38,092 nucleotides of DNA from Catajapyx aquilonaris (lineage: Eukaryota): positions 1 through 38,092 of the forward strand of contig KZ538971.1 of assembly GCA_000934665.2 (NCBI GenBank), given 5' to 3'. Shown piece after piece: positions 2,270 through 33,817 of the stretch. A model generated the notes under the pieces. The model was not told the origin of the DNA and did not search any database. It saw only the letters and a list, made by a program, of their open reading frames with translations. Every line of letters starts with the position of its first letter. Positions within the stretch are counted from its first letter, which is position 1. The position numbers were made by a program, and so were the translations under genes.

Positions 2270-2984
2270 ACATATTCTCTTCAATTGCATGGGCATTTAC
2301 GGGTACTGTCATTTCTACCTCTTTTTCTTGTCAGTTTACTGTACATGCATGACTGCATGGCTGTGCTAGCATACATTACCCTACACACATCACAGCAAGT
2401 GTTGGAAGTGATCACCATGATATGCGAAGCACATAATTATATCCACGCGCAGGTGTGCATGCTGTTGTAAACCCATCTCAATGTTACAATGTCAAAGCAA
2501 GCATCAAAGTTGTGCATTTTATTACGGTATTAATGTTTTCCTGTAAGGCTTCAATAATCATTATTGTACCTGGTTTGCACCTGTAAATGAATCAGTTGTT
2601 TCAAAAAGGTCTTGTCCACTTTTTGGAATTTTTGAGTTGACACTGCTATGTTTCTTCTTGAGTATAAACACATGTTCAGAATGAAAACGGCATCAGCCAG
2701 ATGCCTCTGTATGTGATAAATTGCACCCCAGAACTCTATATCAGATATTCAAGGCAGGGTAGTGTCAGCATGGTTGTTGCTTTCCCCCCTTCAGTTAACC
2801 TGCTCTGAGGGTATGGTTGCTGTGAGAATAGCAGTAGCCCGAGTCATATCGTACCCCATGTAGTACGCCAAGCATGTATGCCAGTCTTCAGAAATGCCCT
2901 TTAAAATGCCTGCTAGAAACCACCTTGAATTGCAATGTCTGTCAGTCTACCTTGCACACTTACCCTGTTGCCATAACCGGAATT

Positions 2985-3036
2985 CCCCCCCCCCCCNNNN
3001 NNNNNNNNNNNNNNNNNNNNNNGGGGGGGGGGGGGG
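2985..3036. other. Assembly gap (25 N, 2997-3021) flanked by poly-C and poly-G
   Basis: Seen directly. Confidence 0.95.
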
Positions 3037-3391: not shown

Positions 3392-4050
3392 TTCCCCATT
3401 ACACAAGTTGTACTTGTTGCATAGTAATACAATCCAAAGTAATCGCAACCCACATAATCCTGTTACAAAAAAGATGGTACATGTGCATCAACTCACCCCC
3501 TGAACAAGAGCAGTTTAATGTTGTTCTGTTCATGTCAAATTTAAAAAAAAGTTGTACAAGACATCAGTGAAACTAAATCCACAAACTAAACACAACGTGT
3601 ATCAAAACAAACTTTGCATAAACTGAATGTCATACATTGCTTAAAAGGGACTGAACTTATATCTGCTTGTCTCTTCTGACTTGTGCATGCAAATATAACT
3701 TTTGTGCATTCCATTACATCCCAAAGATCACAAAATGCCACAAATTAAACAGTGCAAGACTAGAAGAACAGCAACAGTTGGCAAGGGTGCCACGAGAATG
3801 GGCAAGTGGGCATGGCAAGCATGTGACCACCTGTGGGATTAGTGATTGGTTTCAGCTATGCTTGTGCATTCGATCTACCCCAGGTAGATTGAAGCCCCAA
3901 GCACATAGCCAAGGCATTCCATCTCAAGCATTCGAGGCTTATTCCAAGCACAAAAGTCCCAACTTCCGCACACAAGTCTCGAGTTACAAGATGATACAAA
4001 TTCAGACCTTAATTGACCAGTACCTCACCCTTTCAGATCATCTTAAGTTC

Positions 4051-7000
4051 TTATTTCTTGTTCTTTGCAATGCTGTTTAACACTTCTGCCTTAACCCTAG
4101 TGTAAAGGGATTCAAGTGTTTGGAGTTTCGCCTTCAACCGACGATTTTCTTTCTCTAGTAGGGTTTTCTGGATCTCCAGGTTGGACTCGCGTTGACGCCG
4201 CTTAGCCCTTGACCGACGAGAAGCCTCATTATTACGCTCCCTCAGGTCCTTCTCTTTGCTGGCTGCTGTTGTGCGACGGGCTGGCGTAATTGAAGGTCGG
4301 TGGAAAGCACTGGCTCCCTTACGCCAGTCTGGATCCTTTAAGTCATCCTCCTCCTCTGACTCTTCTGCATTTTCCTCCTGAGAAGGCTCTTCAATCCTGG
4401 CTGTTGTTGTCTCAGCCTTGGAAATGCCAAGCATTTTCTCGTAATCCTCCTAAAATTGACAAGAGTAAAGTGTATTAATTCCTCTCTCTTACTCAAATAG
4501 CATCTCTTAAAAGTAATGATCCATAAATTGAATCATATCAGGATACCATGTGCAGTGTTGAGAAATCACAGCTACCAACACACTTATTAGCAAATGACAA
4601 TGCTGCCGTCAGTTGTGAGAGGACCGTAACTAAATATTCACTTCTCTTGCGGCGAGAAAAGAGAGCAAGTGTTACCGAAAGCATCCAAGAGGTGGCGTTG
4701 GGGGAAGGGGGGAAAAAGGAACAGCCTCCCACCTCCACCTGTTGGGTGCTTTTGTTACCACTGCTTTTTTTCTCGCCACAAGGGGAAGTGGACGCTGAGT
4801 TACGGTCTTCTCATATCTGACGGCAGAATAGTGCCTGCAGGGAGCCCAGGGAGCCACATGTTAGCACAGGTTAAGGAGAATCGAGTTGGTAGGCAATAAT
4901 TTCAAAGCACACTGTGACACTCAAAATGCACCGAATTCCCTACATGCGAAGATTCTGTGTGCCCAACAACATTCAGGGTGAAAGAATGTGCTATAGGCCC
5001 CCGGCATCCATCGGTTCGTTATTCAAGGTTGGAAAATATTAAAATATTTATTTAAAAACTTTCAGTTCCAACACGATTATTAATTGCGAGGCAACCACAT
5101 GCGACATTTTTCCGAAGCGGCAGAAGAAGGAATATTGCTCGCCCGGCTTGTAGCATGCTTATCTTCGATTCCTTCTTCTGCCGCTTCGGAAAAATGTCGC
5201 TGCCGGTTGCCTCGATATATCGCCAGCATTGTACTATATCGCTCAAAAAGATAGAGACGATTGGCATTTGATTCAAGTGCAAGTTGCACTTGAGTCAAAT
5301 GCAAAATCGTCTCGATCTTTTTGGGCGATATAGTACATATATGCTAAAAACATAATTATGTTATATAGGGTTTGGTATTATCTGCGTGTGTGTGTGTGTG
5401 TGTGTGGGGGGGGGGGGAGGTGTCATTATTACTCATTGATAATATAATGGGAGCCCACTGTGGTACTGCATAATTTGCATCCTTTCTCAACACATCATCC
5501 AAGTTGATGACACCACCACAAAATAGTTTTCCTCACAAGTGTTCCCAATAGTTTCCATCTACCTGGGCATCCAGAATTGACCTATCTAAATGTCACAGCA
5601 GATAGTGACTGCATAGTAATGTCCTTTTTTAGCCTATTCAGATTACAGTGATCACTGACTACGATTACAATGCTTCATGCATCTAAATGCTCAGGTGCTT
5701 ATGCCGTTACATCCTCCCAAAATTACTCCATACATGCTGTCGTACCATGAATGCCCATGCCAATACTTGCAGGCAATATAAATTGGGGTTTGTCATTATA
5801 TTATGACTGCGTACTCATTTCACACCTCTACACTTTTCATTCGTTTTGGGTTAAGGAATCTAATTGCATCCTAGCAGCCCTTCCTTGCTGTTACACTTTA
5901 CATCCCATTTCAGTTTTCACAAAAATTACTCTCTCTTAAGGCAGAATAAACTGAAAAATACATACCTCACTGATAAATTTAACCAGGTCAAATTGGTCAA
6001 TCTCAGCGCAGTCAAGAATGTCAGCAGAAGAGGTGGAAGTTGATGGTTCAGGTTCAGGTTCCAATTTGGGGCAGAGTGGCAATTCCGTACTTGAATGAGA
6101 TCTGGGCACTGGTGAGTTGCGCAGTTGGGTGGCAACTGGTGGTTCCGGTGAATAAGCAATGTTCACATCCGATTCTGGAGGAGTTTCAATGGTCACAGCT
6201 TCTTCGTTGCTCATTTCTGGCAGCTCCATCTTCACCATTTCTGGAGTGCAGCCATTCTGCATTAAGGTGATCAGCTCCTCCGGATTTATCACTGACAGCA
6301 CCACAATGTGCCTGGCAGTGGAAGAAGGCCTGGTTGCAGTCTCCTCAATAGCACTCTCAAAATGCTGTATTGGGATTGACACTTCTTCCTCTGGCAGAAG
6401 CCCATTGATGGAGCTTGCCACTGCATCATCTATATTGCAGGTGGCACCTCCTTCCTGATGCCATCCTGCCAGTGGCACAGATTGTTCCATGGCCACTGGC
6501 AGGATGTCATCTTCAACACCCCCAAGGACGTTGTCCAGTGGGTCCTCCTCAGGTGTAAGGATGGTCTCAGGCTTCTTATCCAAAGTGATGAGGTTATCTT
6601 CACCCCATGTTTCCATATCATCAAAAACTGTCATGTCACTGTCCAATTTCCAGGGATCCTGCATGCCTGTAAGACAACAAAGTATGAGATTTACAAAAAG
6701 CTAACCCAAAATTATACACTTCATCATCAGCCATTCTGAAGCATCCCTAGTTTTCATAAGGAGACCTGCTGTAGATACTGAAAATTTGGATATTTGGTTT
6801 GAACATATTATTTAATTTTGCAAGTACAACCAGTACTTTTTATTACACTACAGAACTAATGTTATAAACTATCATATTCATTTTAATTGGTTGTTTTCAT
6901 GTCCTAATGTGTCTAACTTGTAAAATTTAACTTATAGGTATTTAATAGCTTCATATGCTGGGACGAGTCACATTTTGCCTGTGAAACTTGAGCATTTTTC

Positions 7001-7892
7001 CATCAAGTGATTTTGGTGTGATTTTCTCACTTTCCTCAAGAACATACCAGGAGGGTACATTTTGTTGATCCCTTCCAAAGCTTGTAAATCATACAAAATG
7101 GCATCCATCTCATTAGGGTTAAGATTCAATTAAGGCACTCCAGTAAGTAAAATAACGAGATTGAGTAAAACAAAACTGCCCCGTCACTGTCAGACAAACA
7201 CGAATAAAAATTTGGCAAGGGTGGATTTACTCCACTGGATTTACACGTAATGCCTCTCCCCCCACTATCCAGTATTGTGTCAGGATTATTATCAACCTAT
7301 GAGAACCCGAAAAATTCCAAGCGTTCACAAGTGATTTATTCAGCAATGAATAATAATTGTTTGATCCTTCAGTTGTCTCAGGACCACATATGCTCTACTT
7401 CAAAGTTTGGATTTTCCTAATTAGAATGAATATCCTGTCCTACCCATCTCACATTTTCCAAGCCATTTTCCACTTAAAAAATTGATCAAAGCTGTAAAAT
7501 AAAGGAGTCCCTTGCAGGAAGTATAAATTTTTGGCATAATGTTAAGCACTAATATTATGCTTTTACAACCACATGATGCACTAAATGGCGTATCAGGGTC
7601 AGAGATAAGGATCTGCAATGTCAAAATGCAACAGCAGCTATTTTCTCAATTAAAAACCCGAATCCAGTCTGTTTCCCAATTAGTGTACATAATACATTTA
7701 CTGCTTCTAACTTATAAAACAGAGCCAACTCATACCAATGACTGGAGTGTTCAGTTCACCTTCCATCTGGATGGAAGGGGTCCCAAACAAATTCCCGTAG
7801 AGCAGATCGCTTTTGTCCACTGTCTTGGTCAAGGCTGATGGGTCGAAGTGTGATGTAACTTGGAAGTCCACGCGGACCCTCTTGTTCATCAT
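4051..7892 (-). CDS. C/EBP-related stress bZIP transcription factor (Xrp1/DDIT3-CHOP-like candidate), 418 aa. Exons: 7892-7736, 6666-5966, 4449-4051
   Basis: Phase-consistent GT-AG joins: ATT G|gtatga...ttacag|GC ATG (phase 1) and GAG|gtatgt...ttttag|GAG (phase 0). The protein is MMNKRVRVDFQVTSHFDPSAL...LNTPVIGMQDPWK..., with an acidic/PEST-rich middle and FDLVKFI motif, then basic region LRERNNEASRRSRAKRR (N-x7-R) and leucine heptads L-EIQKTL-L-EKENRR-L-KAKLQT-L-ESLYTR-V at the extreme C-terminus. The bZIP call is secure; the subfamily is inferred. Confidence 0.88.
5087..5213. repeat. Inverted repeat with perfect 33-bp arms (5101-5133 / 5168-5200), extended by GAGGCAACC/GGTTGCCTC
   Basis: GCGACATTTTTCCGAAGCGGCAGAAGAAGGAAT is the exact reverse complement of ATTCCTTCTTCTGCCGCTTCGGAAAAATGTCGC; 34-nt spacer. 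Confidence 0.95.
5225..5345. repeat. Near-perfect palindrome with ~53-bp arms centred at 5283
   Basis: TGTACTATATCGCTCAAAAAGATAGAGACGATTGGCATTTGATTCAAGTGCAA-G-TTGCACTTGAGTCAAATGCAAAATCGTCTCGATCTTTTTGGGCGATATAGTACA; about 5 mismatches/indels. Confidence 0.93.
5387..5417. repeat. (GT)n microsatellite followed by a G run
   Basis: Seen directly. Confidence 0.9.
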
Positions 7893-8019
7893 CTTGGTCG
7901 TCTTCGTCAAGTCCGCTTGACCCCAAGATGAGAGAGACCCTGGGGCAGCCAGCGACTTGGCAGCCAGCGAGAGTTGCGAGTTGGCATTTGGCGCCGGAAC
8001 CTCCTTCGATTTGAACCAT
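7756..8019 (-). CDS. Upstream overlapping ORF of the bZIP mRNA, 87 aa (MVQIEGGSGAKCQL...REFVWDPFHPDGR)
   Basis: First AUG of the predicted spliced mRNA (exon 8033-7736), strong context gacATGG. Runs out of frame across the main AUG (7892) and stops at 7756, inside the same exon. Confidence 0.6.
   Translation of the reverse strand: MVQIEGGSGAKCQLATLAGCQVAGCPRVSLILGSSGLDEDDQDDEQEGPRGLPSYITLRPISLDQDSGQKRSALREFVWDPFHPDGR
7907..7987 (-). CDS. Nested short uORF, 26 aa (MPTRNSRWLPSRWLPQGLSHLGVKRT)
   Basis: AUG at 7987 in weak context (caaATGc), third frame; TGA at 7909-7907, 14 nt before the main AUG. Confidence 0.45.
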   Translation of the reverse strand: MPTRNSRWLPSRWLPQGLSHLGVKRT

Positions 8020-8915
8020 GTCGGAACACAAAACTGCAAGAGTAAAAAGATTATTGAGCACTCGCTCATATTCAACCGAAAGCCCTTCGTCACATCTTGG
8101 AAAAAATTGCTAGACAAGATGCATGTACTACTGATATATCAAATGCAATATGACTTGAATTTTGTTTGGCACATTTCCTCTTGCCGAGATTCTAAAATCC
8201 AAGGGGTAAATCACTCTGTAGTTGCGCGTACAACGAACTTGTAAAAAGCTGGACTTGACAAGTGATTTACCCCTTGCTAAAACCACACATGTTCTGTCAG
8301 TCTTCCAGCAACAACTTTCAGGAATAGTCTCAATTGACACCATTTGAGTCTCCTTATTCTAAAGGGGCACAAATGATAAATGTGCATAATACCTATCCCT
8401 ACCCTTGCACCCCACCCCCCCGAGCTGCTTCTTTCCTGAATCTGGAATTCTACACTGGGACCGGTACTGCAATTGGGGGGCAGACAAAAAAATGTACTGG
8501 TGCTGAAGCTGAAAAAAAAACAATCATTTTGTCACCTGTTAGTTTACCATTTGTTTCTCCAGCCAACACGCTCTGAGGACAGCTCGTGGTGCAATCATTT
8601 GAATTTTCTGTAGCACATCCCATATCTACATCCCGCATGCCTAGCTTCTGCACATTACTTGCCAATCCCACCCAATCACATTAGAAACCTTAAGTCATGT
8701 GATATTGTAGTACCAATCAGGCACTTCCATTACCATTTACATTCCACTAATCAGATTAAAAATATTTTGATGCTTGTTGGGAATGATAACTGCAAATATC
8801 ACTCCCTGTAGGTGAACCTTGAGCCCTAATAATCTCGAAATCAATTCTTTACCCTTAAAAGGTCATGCAAATTCAAACATCCAACAGGTGCCTCCACATC
8901 AAATTTCCCCCTTAA

Positions 8916-9198
8916 CCCTGGCACTGTGCCGTGGGATCTTTTTGGACCCCAAGGGAAAAAATTCATTAAAATGATAATTACAATGCACTTTTGCCATTTT
9001 TTTACAGTATATAACAGGAAGTGCAGGTTTATTTTGAATTAGCGATCATTTTAGGCATTGTTCAAAGAATGATTGTATATAGTCAATACATTGAAAAGTA
9101 TTATATAAAAATTAATAAAAATTAAAATATGGCTAGGCTCCGAAAAGACCCCACGGCATGGTTGCCGTAATACTCGTAGGCACGGCACGGTTCCAGGG
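8916..9198. mobile_element. Non-autonomous piggyBac-type MITE in a bZIP 5'-UTR intron
   Basis: TTAA|CCCTGGCACTGTGCCGTG ... CACGGCACGGTTCCAGGG|TTCA (16/18 TIR, one TSD copy mutated). Also an asymmetric subterminal repeat (TGCCGTGGGATCTTTTTGG vs CCGAAAAGACCCCACGGCA at ~9140-9158), typical of piggyBac ends. AT-rich non-coding interior. Confidence 0.85.
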
Positions 9199-9326
9199 TT
9201 CAAATCTGGTCAACCTAGAAAATTCACAAATACTACTTACTTTAGTATCCCTGGTGCTGTTGAGATAAATTGTGCCTACTGCAAGGTGATCCCTTTCTGG
9301 GAAGTGTTGCACGCTGTCTGGCTTAC

Positions 9327-9378
9327 GGACAAAGGACACGAGCTTCTGGTCACTCAATGTGGCAGCTGGCTCGACCAC
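9327..9378 (-). other. Predicted non-coding exon 2 (5' UTR) of the bZIP gene
   Basis: Acceptor gattttcag|G at 9379/9378, donor TCC|gtaagc at 9327/9326; no AUG. Confidence 0.65.
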
Positions 9379-9569
9379 CTGAAAATCACAACCGACATTA
9401 ACTACTCAATTCGACACCACACCACCCACTTCATGTTATGTCGTGGACAAGTGTTGCAGCCAGCTAAATGCACATCATGCCCTCTACGGCATGGCAATAA
9501 TTTTCCATATGTGAATCTGCATGCTTCATGAGCCACAACCTTGACCAAACCCTTGTTACATAACCTCAC

Positions 9570-9696
9570 CTGGTGAATCAACACCTCGGGTTGTAACCCA
9601 AGTCACAGCAACGCCTGTGCAAAAAAAGCCGGCTGGTTCGTCCAAGATGTCCCGTACAACTCAACAACAAGACTGCTCGCTGAATATTCGCCGATT
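9570..9696 (-). other. Predicted non-coding exon 1 (5' UTR) of the bZIP gene
   Basis: CA initiator dinucleotide with the A at 9696, 31 nt from the first T of TATATAA; donor CAG|gtgagg at 9570/9569; no AUG. Confidence 0.65.
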
Positions 9697-9840
9697 GCAC
9701 CGCATGATGCAATCCATCCCTTATATACTGCTCCTACGGACCAATCAGAACGTAGGTACTCCGTGGTCATGACGTCAACGGGAGCCAATAGGAAAGCAGG
9801 AGAGCCTATGACCTTCTCGTGACTCGACGTCGCCACGTCG
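9693..9840 (-). promoter_or_regulatory. Core/proximal promoter of the bZIP gene: C/EBP-ATF element, TATA box, two CCAAT boxes, CRE, UPRE-like site
   Basis: ATTGCATCA (minus, 9713-9705), TATATAA (minus, 9727-9721), CCAAT 9741-9745 and 9785-9789, palindromic TGACGTCA 9770-9777, GCCACGTC 9832-9839. Confidence 0.75.
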
Positions 9841-10944
9841 TCGGAGTGTTTGACGCGGATTATTTTTTTTTGTCCTCCCCCGCGATACTAACAGACGGTG
9901 GTGGTGTTGGTAACGTATCTATCACGCCCATTTTCATAGATTTCAGGCCCGAAATAAATACGTCATGCGGGGGTCACTCATGACCTTCGCAATACCGGCC
10001 GGTTATTATGTAAGTGGATGTGACATGTTTCGATATGCTGACAGGTGTGAGTATCATTGTAGCGGCGTAACATTGTTGGCATTGGGACGTCAGTGGGTAG
10101 ATTTTCGGCTTGTTTACAGAGGAATGACGCACGGAGTATTAATCGATATCTCTAGGGACGGATAAAGAAAATTGTCCCGTGCAAAGACTCATCAGCTGAT
10201 ACGACGAGGTGGACCTAAAAAAAAAAAAAAAGGGTAGCCAAGGACAGCGTACGGTGCCTTTCATGCCCTGCTCAATTCTCCGAAAACGAACTGGGGGAAA
10301 TCCCGAGGCGTTGCCAAGTTGTGCTTTTGTATAAACAGGATGTGCTACATGGAATTTACTCCGCATTGGTGTGCAAGATGTACAATCCAAAGTCGAAATA
10401 TGTAGATATGATGATTTTTTATTTTTAAGTGACCCAAATTTGTACTGTGTACCATGGTATTCATTGGGCTCAACGGTGACTCAGAGACGTATGAATGGGG
10501 AGTAAAATCCCGGATGTGCAAATGTCAATAACACATCATTTATAGGAATGTATCAGAAACACAATAATATCGGGTTAATTGTGAATCGTTGAGCAAGTTA
10601 TGACATTGAAGGTAGATAATTTTACAGATAAAGAAAGTGGTTGTTATCATGCCGAAACTAATTTTAAAAGTTCAATGAGTTACAGTAATATCGGTATAGC
10701 ATATGTTACGTTTGAACACGTACTGTACAGTACGTTGCCTTTTTGTTACATAAAAGGATGCCAGTCAATTATGTAACAGCTTGAAGGCAATAGTCGTTTT
10801 ATAAAAACCAAACTGCTGCGCAATGACTCATTAAACTATCTCTAGTAGTTGTTGCTTTTACAAATGGCTTGATGAGTCACAGGTAACTAAAATTATGCTA
10901 ACTAAAAAAAAACAACTAACAAGCTGAAATAAACTTACGCTAAC

Positions 10945-24511: not shown

Positions 24512-27500
24512 ATGCCGGCGGCTAGGGTCAGAAAAGGATGGTGCGGCTGCTTTCAGGTACAAATTTTCATTGTGTTTTTTTGGTGTCCCACTTCGAACCT
24601 TTAGTCTTGTAATGGATGGTATTTTGAACAGTCACTGGCAATTCATTTTCCTTGGCATATACGGAACTATTGAAGGTTGTTGTATTTCAAAACTGACAAG
24701 TTGTCAATAATGAGCAGTAATGATGTATTGGGTAATTGTTGATGGCTTCCATCTTGTTTGGCGGATGGTAAAAGTAGGCGGGTAGATAAATGCCAAGGGC
24801 AACACGAGTGCCATTTGAATTTCAATATGTGTAGAAAGGGTGAAAGCAACTGGTAGGCAAGGTTTTTATATTTTCGTGAAAAGTCTCATGATTACGTGCA
24901 ACTTCTGCTTCGTACAAAATATCGAATGGCGAAAGTCAAGTTAGTTGACTTTTGCCATTAGATAAAAAGTATACCATGTCTACCAAACATGGATGGAAAA
25001 TATCCATTACTTTTTGGGCAGTAAAATTGAGAGAATTATTTTCATATCACTTATTAATAAATTACTTTTAAACAGAAAAGTCCGTGACAAATTGTCGTGT
25101 ATAGGTGTTGAAACTTGAAATATCCTGTCCACCTCGAATGTGATTTAAAAACTTGACACATATCATTCGATACGCCACTTACTCATCGCGTACACAAATC
25201 CGAGTGATTCCCCCGCACGAAAGGTGTAGTTGAAACAAAGTGTCACGTCACAGATGTGGCTCGGGTCACATTTGTTTCTCCAGGTTTACCAGATATGAGG
25301 TGTCATAATGGCTACGTTACATTACTTATATTAAAGTTAATATTACCAGATAATTTTCGACAGAATTATTTCATACGGTAGAGAAGAAAAAGATAAATTA
25401 TTTATTTTTTGTTTCTGTACCAAATGAAAATAGATGCCCTCGGTTTAAAAACAGACTTTGATAATAAATATGATTACTTAATATTGAGTAGGTGATTACT
25501 AATGTTCAGCATACATTTGACAAGAATAAAACTGACCTTGTATAATAATATGCCTACTAATAGTGTATTTAAATTAATGTACCATATAAGTGAAGAATGA
25601 CATGGAACAGAGTCCAAGGTCATTCCAAAAATTTCTCACGACAGAGCTCTTAAACTTTGTCACCATATCGAGTGTCGCATGTTTATTGAACATAAAACGA
25701 GCATAAAATAGTACCCTCAAGTTTTCCATGAATTTTGCTCGCGTAATAATTATTTCGCTTCATATATACGTAGAGTGTAGGCCTAATCACATGACGAAGC
25801 GGTACTTTTCTTTCTCTGGGGTCATGTTTCCATGCCCAATGCGTTATAGAAACAACTGGCCCTATATAGTACTTTGGCAGAATCGAAATTCAACTGCGAC
25901 TATTCGAAATCATGCCTTAACACACCTCAAGGTCATAATGTGTATAATATCTGACACACATACCTGTTGTGTCAGCTGTTTGAGATATTTCGGAAAGTGG
26001 GTGATTTGTTGACACCAAACTAGTCAAAAATGTAGAGGTGTGAAATAATGAGGCACCCACCGTTAATGACATAGTCGTAAATATTTATATCGGTGCTAGG
26101 CATACCGGCCCGGGTCTTACTGACGCAATCGAAGGTATATGTCTACGAATCAAGGGATAGTGATAGTAAAAATAAGACCGAGCGATAGCAGCACAACAAC
26201 GCATCCATCGTGCCATATCTGCTGTCAAAGCTAGTGTATGGAAAATATTCTATAGTAGGCCTACTATATTGCTCCAAATAATTGTTATTATTATCGGTCG
26301 TTTACCGTTATTCGTGCCGCATTTTGTTCATTTACCTCTTTGTCATTTTCTGGACTAAGGAATATTTTTTCGCAAATTCTGCACCTGACATACTGTAGGT
26401 AATGCCTCTGTACTACAAGCTCGTTGTATTCATTCGTTAATGGTGGGTTCTTTGCAATTTCACATCCCTACATTTTCCACTTAATTGTGGTAAAGCAATC
26501 ACCTGGCATACGGATTTTGTTTGTTACATCGCGTCGAGTGAACGATAAAAGGCCCTGAGTGAGCACTTACTTGATTACCATCAAACGGAATTACAATCTC
26601 ATTGAGCACGATCAACGGGGAGGGGACCTGCAATATATATGCCCAATTGAAGATTATTTACACTTGAAAACTGCGTGATCTTCAATAATACAATATATCA
26701 ATCTGTAACAGAGAACACAAAAGTGAATCTGCTAGACCTTGTAAAAAAATGGACAAACCGACTCATAATTAACACGGAGCGTACCCGGTATCCGAAATAG
26801 ACAAATGTATAAAAAGTGATTAACTTTTGTGAGCCTAACAAAGCATTCTGTATATGGAGGGCTTTGCATACAATTCTTGATTTAGTGTTTCCCTCTGATT
26901 AGCCGGATGAGCCACCAGAAATTACCTACTGCGTGGTGGATCCTGCGGGCAATTTGTCCCTGCAGGCACTTACTCCTACTCAGCCAATGCCAGATGAAGA
27001 AGAGCTTAACAACAAGTTTGCCGAGTTAGTGGTGAGTGTCACTCCAGATGGCTGGAGTTTGGAAAGCAGACTCAGCTCAAACATCACATATAATTGCAGG
27101 AAGAGTTGGATCTCACTGCCACAAACAAGACTGCCATGCTCAACTTGCCTCCAGAGAAGAAATGGCAAATATATTGCAACAAGAAAAAGGTACTGTCGAC
27201 ATTTACAGAACAAGAACATCCTTTTCAATAAGCTAATATTATAATCAGCGACCTTGCCGGTTCTCAGAATTTGAAATGTCAATTCGCAATATTGTCACAC
27301 CTGACTGCATTTTGGTGTCGGTCACTTCTAAGTAACTCACTACCGGTAGGTTCCGTTCCTCACGAGTAGTTATGAAGACACCGAGCCATTATTTTGGTGC
27401 TAAGTGGAGATAGATTTGCTATGGGGGAGGACATCATTTTTTTTTGCACTTGAGATTAAGCAATAGGGATGAGGGAGTCTCAAAGCGTGATTCCCAAATG

Positions 27501-30500
27501 ACGAATGTATCATTTTGATCAATTATAGAACTTAATAACCATGTCCATTTTCACTTGCAGGACCAAGAAGGCGAAACGGATCTTTCTCACCATCCAGAAC
27601 ATTACATCGAAAGGGTTAATGCCCTAGCTTTGGTACGAACTCTGGTTACTTATGATTTAATAATTATTGATGCATTTCATCCTCAAATACTTGGTTCACT
27701 TGCTACAAACACAGTTTATATGCCACTGGCACAACTTTGGTTAGAAATGAACTGAGCGGGGTTGAGTGCAACACCTCAATTGTTACACTGAATATACTAA
27801 AACGAGGTGCAAAGTGTTCACTACAATGCCACATTTGCAGCTCACTCAGCCTTTTGAAGGATCGGAAGAAGAGGTCAGGAGTCGAGTAAAAGTCCTGGAA
27901 GGCCTCAAAACAGCTCTTCGTACTCAACCTCACAGTTTTGTGGTTCGTTTCATGGAATTGGATGGCCTACCCTCTCTCTTGTCCTGCTTGTCCAAAATGG
28001 ACTATGACACGGGACAGAGCTCCATCCACACCTCGCTCTTGGGGTGTCTCAAAGCACTCATGAACAACTCGGTGAGTTTTTTCACACATTTAATTTCTTA
28101 AATCAACTTGGTCTACTAATATGTCTCATACTATTTCAGAATGGACGGGCACATGTGCTGGCACATCCCAACGCCATCAACATAATCGCGCAAAGTCTAA
28201 GCACCGAGAATCTCAAAACTAAAGTGGCCGCCTTGGAAATCCTAGGAGCTGTATGTTTGGTCCCTGGAGGACACAAGAAAGTACTCGAGGCCATGCTACA
28301 TTACCAAAAATTCGCCGCTGAAAGAACTCGATTTCAGGTACGTCTCATTACTCATCCTAAATTGGGGACACACTACTAGGTGGTTACGCAACGATGTTAT
28401 ATTTAAAGTTCGATTGTAAGTGGATTAGTTTTTATGGTCCTGACATTCTATTTCGAGCCTCCCTTCCCCCCCCGTAAAACCGCTCCAAAAGTAACTTCCG
28501 GGATATTCCAAAATACTCCAGTGCAGAGTAATAGTGTACCACATCTATAGTACTAATCTGCATAATTTGTAGTAATCTAAGCCGAAACTAAAGACCGACC
28601 ATGAAACTCCCACGTGGTTTTGTGTACTGTAGCTACAGTTCGAAGACCTAGAATATATCCTACAGCAGCAGTTTCATTGCGTGGGAACCAAGAGAGAGGG
28701 GGGTTGGTGGGTGGATAGGTGGGCTGCTCCTGATGCAGGTCGATAGGATGCTGGGCGAGGTCAGTGTACCCAGACTACCTACGGTATTGATCTGTCTGGC
28801 TTGGCTGCTATAAATCCCCAAGTCATCAGTTGCGGAGGGGTGGATTCAGCGTTACGCACATAGACTGTGTGTACATAAGTAGCTTTCCGAGCCAATCCGT
28901 GCTCCCACACCCACTACCCACGCAAAGTGTGTGGTCAGCATTTCTTATGATCAGAGGTCCTATTATAATTACACGTGCTTTCAGCTACTTTAATGGGCGG
29001 AAGGGGGAATTTGGTTCAAGCTTTTTCATGGTGTGTAAAGACAGGGGGGGGGGGGGGGGGGGGNGGGGGAACGTTGGCACGCGATAAAAACATTATTTGC
29101 CTACCAAAAAAAATTATTGATCAGAGATGAACAGGGTTTTAAGCATGCATATGTTTGCTGAAAGAGATAGTAGTGTGAGAGTATTATTGCAGGTTGTAAA
29201 TGGGGATTTTAGTGTGTATATTTTGGGCGAGAACTTCCCTTTTCTCGTTAGTTATTTTTAAAAGGTTCAGAGCCTCAAGTTTTACTGCAAGCTTTTTCTA
29301 ATATTAACAGCAAAATTGGGAATATTGGGAGTGAAAGTAGTCTTCCCAATATGCTCTTGTGTATACTGTAGTCTAGGTGCGAATATTCTCAACATCCTAA
29401 AGCAAATGTGAATGAAAGTGATGAACATATGCACTAACCTTAAAATTAAATTTTAATTCCACGTTTCTCGTAATTTTAAAAATCTCCGGCTGCATCATGT
29501 AGGGTTTTCATCGAATTAGTAGCTGATATTGCGTCAAAATTTTGTTATCCGAGAGCGAGAAATCCGCTTCCACATGTGTACGACTTTACACTTACAACCC
29601 CAGTGTAATTTCCATCTTGATGTGGAGTTGGATGCGGTGTACTTACGACTAATCTTGTAGCTACTGCACTGCGCAAGACTGCTGAGACAATCAATGAATG
29701 TACCATATAGCTATCGGGAGGCAGACATGTCAGAAAGACTCAAGCATTTTGTTAAAGATGCTTTACAACTCGAAAGGTTTACACAAACCTGAAAAATACA
29801 CGCGCAAACAAAAACAGGAGGCTTATGGAAGATGTGGATCAATCTGATGCAGTATAAGATACTTTAATCCCCTTGTGACTAGAATATGGATATAATCAGG
29901 AGCAGTATCCACTTTCAACATATACTAAAACTTCCTTTGTACGAGTAATAATATTAAATATTAATTTAAATTAAAGACCTATCGCATCCAGCTTGAAAAA
30001 ACGTGTAAAACTGCAACTTGTTGGCAGTTACCTCCCTCTGATATATGGCACTATACATAACACGAAAAGAATAAAGTTATACAGCGTGTTCCACAATTGA
30101 GGTGCCCTTCTTAGAAGTTAGTTGAAAGCTATTATTTTGGCCCCAAGCTGCTGTCACTTTAGAAGAATTACTGTACTGATAGGTTATCAAATTTATTAGC
30201 TGCTAATATATTCGGTTGCGTGGACATATATCCTTCTTAAAAGCCCATAGGAGAGTCTATCCTGCGCAGAATGGGTTCTCTGGTATTGGCGATTGATGCT
30301 ATAATTGATCCAGCGGGCCATTATTAAAAGAAAATTTATTTAAATTGAGAACGTCTTGGTGGATAATTTAATTAGGCCTAATAGTAGCAGTTAATTCTGT
30401 ACGTAGCTGCTAGGAGTAACTGCTGTTCCAAAGTGGAGGCATAAAAATAAACACCTTAGGAGGACGAAATATCGTTAACTGAAACGGACAAATCAATCGG

Positions 30501-33500
30501 AAGAAGCTGTATTTTTGAGCTCAATATTTCGAAAATGATTGAACTATTGCATTTCAGAGTGTTGTGAACGATCTGGACAGGAGTACAGGGATATACCGCG
30601 ACGAAGTGAGCCTAAAAACTGCCCTGATGTCGTTTGTAAATGCTGTCCTTAATTATGGACCAGGACAAGATCAATTAGAATTCCGTCTCCACCTCCGCTA
30701 TGAGCTTCTTTTATTGGGGATCCAACCAGTCATTGACAAACTCCGACGCCATGAAAACGAAACCCTGGACAGGTAAGGAAATATCATAGAACTGCATTTT
30801 ATTGTTTTCTTGAACCCTATTTCTTACCACGCAGACATTTGGACTTTTTCGAAATGGTCCGCAACGAAGACGAAAAGGAACTAGCCAGGAGGTTCCACCA
30901 GACACACGCTGACACAAAAAGCGCTAGTTCCATGTTCAATTTGCTACAAAAGAAGCTTAATTACACTGCCGCATATCCACATTTCCTATCTCTCTTGCAA
31001 CACTGCCTGTTGCTACCACGTAAGTCTCAATATGTCGGTGTTCTACAATGGGAATATAATTTTACAACCATATTTTTCTTTGTCGCAGTGGACTATGGTG
31101 CACATCCTCAGCACTGGCTTTTGTTCGACAGAATTATTCAACAGATAATTCTTCAGGGAGAAGACGGTGACGATCCTGACGTGTCTCCTCTCAAGATCAA
31201 TGTCCGAGAAATTGTTCACTTGTGAGTACAAATTTGATCAGTTTTACTTTTCTGGCGGCAGAAAATATCTTGACAAAATCTAACTACAGGCTGGCCAAAG
31301 AAGAAGAGTTAATGGCAGCTCGATGTAAGGCCGAGTCTCTGGAGAAGGAGAATGGCGAATTGGTGACCAAATTGTCCAAAAAAGAGCAGGAATTAGATCA
31401 GAAAGTACAGGAAAAGGTCAGACATTCTGTCAACGATGTTGGGACAGCGATAAGTCACAATGCTAATTAATCGCCACATTTGCAGGAGGATATGGAAGCC
31501 AGTGTGTCTCGCTTGAAAGACAAGCTTGAGAAGGAGACCGTGAAACAACTGGAGGCCCGACAGATGATGGCTCAGCTGGACTTTCAACTGGCAGAGGTCA
31601 GGCAGCAATTGGAGGTTGAGCGGGGGCGTAATTCGCAAGCCACGGGGCCTTCTCCCGACGGCCGCCCCTGTGCTGTTCCACCCCCTCCACCTCCGTCATC
31701 AGCTCTTCATCCACCTCTTCCTCCACCACCTCCACCTCCAAGCCAAGGATTTGGCCCTCCACCTCCCCCACCTCCTGGTCCACCACCTCCTCCACCCCCG
31801 GGCCAATGCGCCCCGAGGCCGCTGACTTTGCCCCGAAAGAGTGTTCCGCAGGCGTCTGTCCCAATGAAGTCTTTCAATTGGGCTAAGCTACCCGAGTCCA
31901 AAGTAGACACAACTCTGTGGCGGGACCTGGACGAGTCACCTCTCTTTGCCATGCTTGACCTCCATACCCTAGAGAGCCTGTTCTCTGCCCACCAGCAGAA
32001 GAATGGCATCCCGGTATGTGACAAATCAGTAAGGACTCTTCTGATTTCCTGATGCACCATATAATGAGAATGGTGTCATATTAATTTGCTCTTCTTCAGT
32101 ATGATGGGTCGTCAGAAGACCTGAGGACGCTAGGCAGGAACAAGAACAAGGGGTTGTCAGTCATTGACAGCAGGCGAGCTCAAAACTGCACCATTCTACT
32201 GTCTAAGTTGAAGATGTCTCATCAGGACATCAGCAAGTAAGCATCAATAATAATAGATGCGCATGTTACCAAAAAATATGAACGTAACTCTTTCCGCCAG
32301 GGCTATATTGAGCATGGACAGCAAAGATCATCTTCCATTGGATATGGTAGAGCAGCTCCTCAAGTTTACTCCCAGTGCAGAAGAAAGGGCGCTTCTGGAG
32401 GAACATGGCGAAGACACCGACAGCATGGACAGAGCAGAACGTTTCCTCTTTGAGATTTCAAAGTGAGTGTCATAATAGGCCTACATATTAATTCAAATAT
32501 ATCTAATGTGTACGTGTTATTAAACAGGATTGAGCATTACGAGCAGAGATTGAAGACGTTGTGCTTTCGAAAAAAGTTTGGCGCCTTGGTTGGCGAGTGT
32601 CGACCCAGACTTCGTGCAGTCCAAGAAGCCTCGCGTGAGATGCAGAGGAGCAAACGTCTCAAACGGCTCCTGGAGGTTGTCCTAGCTCTAGGGAACTATA
32701 TGAACAGAGGTCAAAGGGGCAACGCCTATGGGTTCAAGCTGTCCAGCCTGAATAGACTCGTCGACACCAAATCGGCATCTAACAAGAACGTGACCCTCTT
32801 GCATTACCTGGTTCAGATCCTAGTAGCTAAGGTGGGTTGATTACATCGCATGCCGTTTCCTTCTATCCCATGCTTTTTGTCTATTCCAGTTCAAAGATGT
32901 CCTCGAAGTAGAAGATGACCTTCCTCATGTTCGTGAGGCTGCTAAAGTTAGGTAAGGTTTGTTAGTCGTGGGAATGAACTGCATTAGTTAACGACTCCAT
33001 TTCGTGGCTTTAGCTTGGCGGAACTAGAGAAGGATCTGGGCCAACTTAGGGCTGGCTTGCATGAAGTTGAACGTGAGATGGAGTACCAACGCAGCAGACC
33101 TGTGGCCACGGGTGACCGATTCTTGCCAGTCACCAAAGACTTTGTAGCCTCTTCCACTCTCCAGTTCTCCGAACTGGATGACCATTTCCGGGACATGAAG
33201 GCTGGGGTATGTCCGTTTTAAATGCTCGTACATAAAAGTCTAGAATTGGATTGCTCAACATTGGTTTGACCTTTCAGTTTGAGAGGACCGTCCGATTGTT
33301 TGGAGAGGACCCTAGCACCATCCAACCGGACGAGTTCTTTGCTACTGTGGACACGTTCATGGCAGCGCTGAACGAAGCTCGACAAGACAACGACAACAAC
33401 CGTCGCCGAAGAGAAGAGGAGGAGAAGCGGGCCAAACAAGAAGCAGAGGTAGACTCAATTTGCAACTGTATATGGCCCTCGTGACTCACAGTCATGATGT

Positions 33501-33817
33501 TTCAGCTGAAGAAGAGGACCATGGAGCGCAAGGGCAGTCGCGACGGACTGAAGGGAGGTCAAATGTCAAACGGGTCGGTAGTGGGCAGCGGGAGCGAGAG
33601 CAGCCGAGGAAGTAGCGGAGGTAGCCGAAAGGGCGAGTTTGATGACCTGATCTCAGCCCTGCGGACCGGCGACGTGTTCGGAGACGACGTGGCCAAGTTC
33701 AAACGAGGTCGCAAGAGGAGCGTGGTGGCCAATGGAGGCGGAAGCTCCCCTCCACTCATTATCGACGGTCTGGCTAGGGCCGGCAGCAGGGAGAGGGTCA
33801 TGTTGCCATCATCTTGA
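24512..33817 (+). CDS. DAAM: Dishevelled-associated activator of morphogenesis (formin; GBD/FH3, coiled coil, FH1, FH2, DAD), 1097 aa. Exons: 24512-24556, 26903-27031, 27100-27189, 27561-27632, 27841-28071, 28140-28337, 30558-30772, 30835-31019, 31089-31221, 31290-31416, 31486-32013, 32100-32236, 32301-32462, 32528-32831, 32890-32951, 33014-33206, 33278-33448, 33506-33817
   Basis: All 17 introns are GT-AG and phase-consistent (3294 nt in total). DAAM-specific motifs: [69 protein letters not shown], polyproline FH1, [48 protein letters not shown], and [19 protein letters not shown] followed by KRGRKR. Confidence 0.97.
29044..29069. repeat. Poly-G tract with one N
   Basis: Seen directly in DAAM intron 6. 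Confidence 0.9.

Follow-up and report, generated by a model that had tools for sequence, protein, structure and literature searches.

A long overlapping upstream reading frame in a putative Xrp1-like bZIP gene of Catajapyx aquilonaris

On the minus strand of contig KZ538971.1 of Catajapyx aquilonaris (assembly GCA_000934665.2; positions 1 to 38,092 were analysed, and this whole stretch of 38,092 nucleotides is called the window), the main start codon of a bZIP gene is preceded by an 87-codon upstream open reading frame (uORF), which runs across that start in another frame. The question raised by this locus is what such a frame does, i.e. whether it holds back the transcription factor in cis, encodes a microprotein of its own, belongs or once belonged to the coding sequence (CDS) of the factor, or is simply open by chance. 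On balance, we lean towards the view that it is a real overlapping uORF in the mRNA of an Xrp1-like bZIP factor, with inhibition in cis as its probable main role, of the kind known from Drosophila Xrp1-L and from uORF2 of ATF4.

The upstream frame and its transcript

An earlier note on this DNA, made from the letters alone, had described a frame of 87 codons from AUG 8019, in strong context and overlapping the main start at 7892 out of frame for 137 nt. Re-deriving the open reading frame (ORF) gave the same result, and every peptide segment quoted in the note is present in the translation. The context of AUG 8019 is TCCGACATGG (TCCGAC-ATG-G; gacAUGg), with G at both -3 and +4, compared to ACCAAG-ATG-A for the main start, which is followed by a second ATG at 7889. 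The overlap (7892..7756) is in the +2 frame relative to the main ORF. A second and shorter upstream ORF, starting at AUG 7987, is nested within the first and was absent from the note; its stop lies 14 nt 5' of the main ATG. All generic features of an overlapping uORF are found here: an upstream AUG, a different frame, a stop beyond the main AUG, and a place in the mature mRNA.

The last of these features follows from a single public sequencing run (X1, of unrecorded kind), which was used over positions 3900-9900 and yielded one spliced contig of 2299 nt. This contig has four joints, 4448|5965, 6665|7735, 8033|9241 and 9375|9567 (cut +1), and all four skipped parts read CT..AC on the plus strand, i.e. 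GT..AG on the minus strand, so that the gene comprises five exons (Table 1). Separate low-depth contigs from the same run cross the introns, from which we infer that the run is RNA-derived and represents mature mRNA plus some precursor. The contigs were used for gene structure only. The exon at 8033-7736, on which the whole proposal depends, is present in the spliced contig and is entered upstream of 8019. In the transcript seen, AUG 8019 is also the first AUG, as the note had stated, with no ATG in exons 1 and 2. Over exon 3 the contig matches the window with neither a differing letter nor a gap, and a frameshift error in the assembly is therefore unlikely. In the contig, ~210 nt of AUG-free leader precede AUG 8019. 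On the 5' side the contig reaches only ~9630; transcription would start near 9696, as predicted from a TATA box, and the leader modelled in this way has no other ATG. An alternative donor, GGAAG|GTGAAC, was considered by hand and rejected, as it would keep the main frame and not rescue the uORF frame, and no such joint occurs in the contig.

In the scanning model, a first AUG in strong context captures most scanning ribosomes. Ribosomes on this mRNA would reach AUG 8019 first, and those initiating there would be carried 134 nt past 7892, to end at 7756. Since they pass the main start, they would not be able to make the full-length factor, which would come only from ribosomes that skip both AUG 8019 and the weak AUG 7987. 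The skipping fraction would be expected to rise when ternary complex becomes scarce through phosphorylation of eIF2-alpha, as reported for Xrp1-L. After termination at the uORF stop, ribosomes could begin anew at AUG 6664 (TTGGC-ATG-C), which is in frame with the main ORF and 22 nt further downstream in the spliced mRNA, and the resulting protein would be without the N-terminal motifs SDLLY and ELNTPVIG, loosely like the short and long isoforms of Xrp1. Termination of the uORF upstream of the exon 4/5 junction could in addition expose the mRNA to nonsense-mediated decay.

Table 1. Positions of the gene parts, upstream frames and nearby elements, in window coordinates unless a locus is named
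Feature	Position	Strand	Remarks
Upstream ORF, +2 frame vs main ORF	7756..8019	-	87 codons, then TGA at 7758-7756
Shorter upstream ORF within the 87-codon one, +1 frame	7907..7987	-	26 codons; weak context CCAAAUGC
Start of main bZIP ORF within exon 3	7736..7892	-	MMNKRV...SDLLYGNLFG...GELNTPVI plus first base of a split Gly codon
Exon 1	9570..9696	-	3' end 9570 and at least 61 nt seen in contig; 5' end ~9696 predicted from TATA box
Exon 2	9241..9378	-	spliced contig; 138 nt, no ATG, open in main frame only
Exon 3 (the exon named in the earlier note)	7736..8033	-	borders from joints 8033|9241 and 6665|7735
Exon 4, coding	5966..6666	-	holds in-frame ATG 6664; ends in family motif FDLVKFISE
Exon 5, coding part (exon 5 is 4449 onward)	4051..4449	-	bZIP_2 domain, basic region RERNNEASRRSRAKRR; stop 4053-4051
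Two exact 12-nt direct repeats	7944..7970	-	7944-7955 and 7959-7970, 15-nt spacing; yield repeated AGC in the uORF peptide
Predicted hairpin around uORF stop	7748..7789	-	-21.4 kcal/mol, z -1.9; also holds in-frame AUG 7766
Core promoter	9705..9727	-	TATATAA at 9727-9721; ATTGCATCA at 9713-9705
Palindromic CRE-like (cAMP response element) TGACGTCA	9770..9777	-	inverted CCAAT boxes on flanks; read from sequence
+2 ORF of relative L001	L001 94-798	+	234 codons; 659-nt overlap with main ORF

The host gene and its N-terminus

Judged by its sequence, the host gene is a C/EBP-class bZIP: exon 5 matches Pfam bZIP_2 (PF07716) with an E-value of 8.9e-10 and 38.9 bits, against a gathering cut-off of 22.3. 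An exhaustive HMMER search returned 45 proteins at E<=0.001, the best being an 848-aa protein of the beetle Abscondita (P0001, 5.7e-15). Names were looked up for 18 of the 45; these include 'uncharacterized' proteins of Abscondita (firefly), Gryllus (cricket), Cimex (bed bug), Lycorma (lanternfly) and Anabrus (katydid), and no Drosophila Xrp1 protein is among the 18. Word-index searches for longer proteins gave no match for exon 4 or exon 5, which reflects a limit of sensitivity, because the exhaustive search did find relatives. P0001 itself contains an AT-hook plus bZIP block three times, almost exactly, which is probably a tandem duplication or an artefact of assembly or annotation.

The host protein has the basic region RNNEASRRSR. 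NNEASR occurs in 30 of 53 stored proteins, and the family form is NNEASR[RK]SR. For D. melanogaster Xrp1, the available text of PMC6946401 prints the basic region as KNNEASRVSRRKTK (KNNEASRVSR), with an AT-hook before it, and by eye the host region, RNNEASRRSRAKRR, shows the same type of feature. The host gene thus looks Xrp1-like, although according to the available parts of PMC8514241 and PMC6946401 (section 11) no clear Xrp1 orthologue is known outside Diptera. A literature search that combined Xrp1 orthologue with Tribolium returned nothing on topic by title.

The N-terminal part of the protein is likewise recognisable. In local alignment, the main frame aligns with a motif (D/E)ELNTP(V)(I/F) in 6 of 9 homologue N-termini, which means that this frame is truly coding within the overlap; a seventh homologue, that of Cimex, reads ELHTP. 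The family motifs SDLLYG and ELNTPVIG both belong to the main frame (7811-7737, within the overlap), and the motif FDL(V/I)x(F/Y)(I/V) at the end of exon 4 is common to the relatives by eye.

The upstream frame could be a relic of, or still a part of the family's N-terminal coding sequence that was split off by a change of frame. There is a printed precedent for this: the first 219 residues of uORF2 of D. melanogaster Xrp1 (288 aa) match the main-ORF N-termini of other Drosophila, as far as the available part of PMC8514241 goes. Some similarities point the same way, namely that of VQIEGGSGAKCQL in the uORF peptide to IGIQGSSGQKLQL in P0001, just before the conserved motif (2 of 400 shuffles as good in one count, 5 of 400 in another), that of a 56-residue stretch to the homologue P0050 (3 of 400), and EFVW[DE], which by eye is common to the uORF peptide and P0027. 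These three matches, however, are not mutually collinear, are short or of low complexity, and were drawn from 40 comparisons, while 8 of the 10 homologue N-termini gave no match at all. Moreover, SDLLY and ELNTPVI sit in the main frame and not in the upstream one, and over exon 3 there are no indels between the spliced contig and the genome, so that a frameshift in sequencing is unlikely as well. A relic origin consequently seems quite improbable.

It is also conceivable that another isoform exists in which the main ORF starts further upstream, through an alternative first exon or a non-AUG start, which would place 8019 inside coding sequence. In fact, the main frame is open for 104 codons 5' of ATG 7892 (7893-8033, 9241-9378 and 9570-9602 on the minus strand), back to a TGA in exon 1, and this is seen in 4.4% of shuffles. 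The length of exon 2 is a multiple of three and this exon is open in no other frame; SLSSWG within the 104-codon stretch resembles, by eye, SLSQWG of the Gryllus N-terminus, and two N-terminal isoforms are predicted for Gryllus. On these grounds the gene may have another first exon or may have lost a start codon. Against such an extension, the transcript seen has the in-frame TGA in exon 1 (30-33 nt before the 3' end of this exon) and no ATG in the main frame before 7892, and none of the 13 near-cognate codons listed for the main frame has a strong context. Compared with 10 N-termini, the 104-aa stretch has no significant match (in the two best cases, 32 and 40 of 400 shuffles do equally well), and neither the exon 2 frame nor the upstream main frame matches Pfam. 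We regard a longer main ORF of this kind as very unlikely.

Length of the overlap and the leader of a relative

What speaks for the inhibitory uORF, besides its position, is the distance over which its frame stays open within the coding sequence. When the main protein is kept fixed and synonymous codons are redrawn according to the usage of the gene itself, the +2 frame stays open for a mean of 9.1 codons into the overlap, compared to the 44 codons observed (P=0.0185 with 2000 resamples, 0.0168 with 5000). Counted along the entire CDS, +2 stops come to 35, in line with the 32.6 expected, from which it seems that the resampling model is calibrated. The overlap length may be under selection. Locally, T is low at third codon positions (0.15, versus 0.26 in the remaining CDS), and the third-position GC content is high.

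A scan of metagenome contigs provided five loci for comparison, and L001 alone has a 5' leader (139 nt before the main AUG), the other four being cut at the 5' side. The first AUG of this contig, at 94 (ACAATC-ATG-G, strong context), is 46 nt upstream of the main AUG at 140 and opens a +2 frame, and its second AUG, at 129, is in the +1 frame, as in the Catajapyx gene. Under the same resampling, the +2 frame of L001 is open for 218 codons into the CDS versus a mean of 33.6 (P 0.002), with 14 +2 stops in total over the CDS versus 18.9 expected, and its +1 frame shows no excess openness (P 0.40). Combining the +2 P values of the two genes (0.0185 and 0.002) by hand with Fisher's method gives ~4e-4. 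It seems that the Catajapyx gene and L001 share architecture and not sequence, which with n=2 is suggestive only. Two closer links were considered and dropped. Positional homology of the upstream AUGs (both AUG-GUU; 32 versus 35 nt apart) was set aside, as the alignments were not above shuffles; the similarity of the uORF to the main frame of L001 (score 42, 5 of 300 shuffles as good) is a gapped low-complexity alignment that the homologue P0032 does not share. The +2 ORF of L001 itself gave a best E-value of 0.053 against P0032. Its middle is acidic and Cys-rich, and P0050 and P0032 show little conservation in the main-ORF region that it overlies.

An alternative is that the ORF is open by chance and has little regulatory weight, with an AUG that is in the leader by accident, few stop codons in the sequence around it, and a bZIP factor that arises through ordinary leaky scanning or on other transcripts. 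ORF length alone is indeed unremarkable: of 5000 dinucleotide shuffles, 11.2% leave 86 codons without a stop, and 58% do so for the 41 codons that precede the main ATG. Elsewhere in the CDS, +2 runs as long occur too, the longest being 53 codons (P=0.31), and the local codon composition (high GC3, low T3) would favour an open frame. A chance origin is also in line with the comparison with L001: the two uORF peptides align with a score of 26, which 208 of 300 shuffles equal, and the nucleotide scores of the two leaders are not above shuffles. What argues against chance is that a first AUG with G at -3 and +4, at the end of an AUG-free leader of this length, would be expected to capture most scanning ribosomes, that the same layout is found in L001 and, in print, in Drosophila Xrp1-L, and that the +2 frame is open for longer than resampling predicts in both species. 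Taken together, we consider a chance ORF rather unlikely.

The 11.2% and the two comparisons with L001 also weigh against the inhibitory reading, and so do several further points. The resampling test depends on its model, with a weaker signal once the low T3 is accepted as a starting condition, and it was picked after the data had been seen; a relative with a 5' leader is available for one locus out of five. Orthology to Xrp1 would rest on a basic-region motif compared by eye, and the exon 5 translation contains neither RGRP nor GRP, i.e. no AT-hook (of the 53 stored proteins, 9 have an AT-hook, and those of Cimex, Gryllus and Lycorma and P0050 lack one). For the mRNA, the 5' end is a prediction, with the contig stopping short of it, and is to be taken as provisional. 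Both the translation of the 87-codon frame and the repression it would exert are deduced from the scanning model. Finally, neither delayed reinitiation nor a weak context of the CHOP type explains how AUG 8019 would be bypassed during stress, because its context is strong and no short uORF comes before it.

Whether the 87-aa product has a function of its own is a separate matter. The earlier note saw an organised peptide, with a three-Cys N-part and an aromatic end, and proposed a dual-coding exon, with the microprotein made when unstressed. Under the scanning model the peptide would be the default translation product, and an overlap longer than synonymous resampling predicts, here as well as in L001, would also fit a coding role. 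On the other hand, the peptide matches no Pfam family and has no homologue of near length in a word-index protein search (2 candidates, neither scored). The ESM Atlas gave no usable match (recognition 1417, compared to 2300 reached by 91 of 100 known-family proteins), and the single-sequence AlphaFold2 model has no secondary structure and a mean predicted local distance difference test (pLDDT) score of 43, which is weak evidence and not proof of disorder. The three-Cys pattern is due to the 12-nt direct repeat, and the last third of the peptide, including the aromatic end (EFVWDPFHPDGR), is largely dictated by the conserved main-frame codons that it overlies. Together with the dissimilarity to the uORF peptide of L001, this leaves the microprotein unsupported and, in our view, most improbable; the uORF peptide is most likely a by-product.

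Promoter, surroundings and known systems

The promoter has a textbook appearance. Between the TATA box and the predicted start lies ATTGCATCA, which we take to be a C/EBP-ATF (ATF4) composite site; by count it is not beyond chance, with 2 matches in the window versus 0.66 expected and 16 of 100 shuffles giving at least 2. Such a promoter would fit the transcriptional control by ATF4 that is reported for fly Xrp1. An ATG at 9705, between the TATA box and the predicted start and 9 nt upstream of the latter, opens a 14-codon ORF that would be in the mRNA only if transcription started upstream of 9705.

Two structures are predicted in the RNA around the overlap, neither clearly beyond shuffles. 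The hairpin around the uORF stop (Table 1) is matched by 9 of 200 shuffles that fold as well, and in the other (7889-7931, minus strand; z -1.4) the main AUG (CCAAGAUGA) pairs with UCAUCUUGG, 25 nt upstream. Rfam gave 0 matches within the window.

Elsewhere in the window, a multi-exon Diaphanous-related formin gene (Drf_GBD, Drf_FH3, a proline-rich FH1 and FH2, the last with E 6.8e-38) occupies ~26900-33800 on the plus strand. Within the intron between exons 4 and 5, positions 5106-5431 have a high summed contig depth (104) in run X1, several loose ends and a skipped repeat at 5376-5431, which probably reflects a dispersed repeat, or a fragment of a transposon, with expression elsewhere. A run of N at ~2980-3010, downstream of the bZIP gene, marks an assembly gap.

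In flies, Xrp1 has a central place in stress responses and cell competition. An Xrp1-like basic region, a promoter with a C/EBP-ATF site and the same uORF layout in a distant arthropod would suggest that the factor may be older than thought and that its translational brake may belong to its ancestral design. In the widest form of this idea, the non-dipteran NNEASRRSR bZIPs are Xrp1 orthologues, the long first-AUG out-of-frame ORF (87, 234 and 288 codons) is ancient and selectively kept, and uORF control in the integrated stress response predates Diptera; we put this forward tentatively, as possible rather than likely. Perhaps a dual-coding N-terminus that swaps frames between lineages predates Diptera as well. 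An older factor with such a brake would offer a comparative handle on how an overlapping uORF in strong context is bypassed. Should the frame be open by chance, or act as a simple brake only, it is one more case of a well-known device. The points of most interest are the possible link of the Xrp1 family to species other than flies and a hint that two distant members keep a long +2 overlap.

Among the systems with which the inhibitory uORF can be compared, C/EBP-alpha and C/EBP-beta have a very short uORF that sets the ratio of long to truncated isoforms. The out-of-frame uORF beside alternative in-frame AUGs is similar here (AUG 6664, shortly after the uORF stop), but reinitiation after 87 codons is expected to be inefficient, so that this is an analogy only. 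The short uORF of CHOP (DDIT3) has no overlap with the main ORF, and ribosomes bypass it through its poor start context. The resemblance lies in having one barrier upstream, in a stress bZIP with C/EBP-gamma as its partner; different are the strong context (gacAUGg) and the overlapping frame found here. For Xrp1 itself, a CHOP-like role has been suggested (PMC6946401, section 11).

The earlier note had called the arrangement ATF4-style, and part of this description holds. In ATF4 and ATF5 it is the last uORF that extends out of frame into the main ORF and, in unstressed cells, blocks its translation (available parts of PMC8514241 and PMC13268129), which corresponds to the 87-codon frame. The short 5'-proximal uORF on which delayed reinitiation depends in these genes has no counterpart in the transcript seen, since exon 2 and the 9700-9570 part of exon 1 are free of ATG (provisionally, the 5' end being predicted), and the host gene is not an ATF4 homologue.

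The precedent that the note took from Drosophila Xrp1 proved to be real (PMC8514241, PMC13268129 and bioRxiv 10.64898/2026.10.09.757274, each cited from its available part). In the fly gene, uORF2 and the main ORF overlap in different frames (PMC8514241). Expression is strong once the ATG of uORF2 is replaced by CCG; isoform RG carries just one uORF, which overlaps; and the leader by itself does not suffice for induction (PMC13268129). Deletion of the common uORF ATG derepresses Xrp1-L, which itself is transcriptionally driven by ATF4 (bioRxiv 10.64898/2026.10.09.757274). The fly uORF AUG has thus been shown to repress the main ORF, whereas the Catajapyx frame is known from its sequence. Other differences are the extra upstream uORF1 of 124 codons in the fly RF isoform, of which there is none in the transcript seen here, the missing AT-hook and non-dipteran host, and the conservation of the fly uORF2 peptide as main-ORF N-terminus in other Drosophila, for which no parallel was found here. 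The two genes nevertheless agree in their C/EBP-class bZIP host with a basic region of the KNNEASRxSR type, in an out-of-frame uORF whose start lies before the main AUG and whose stop lies within the main ORF, and in the sheer length of this uORF, which is also seen in L001. It is therefore plausible that the 87-codon frame represents an already known kind of control, an overlapping inhibitory uORF, to which Drosophila Xrp1-L is the closest example.

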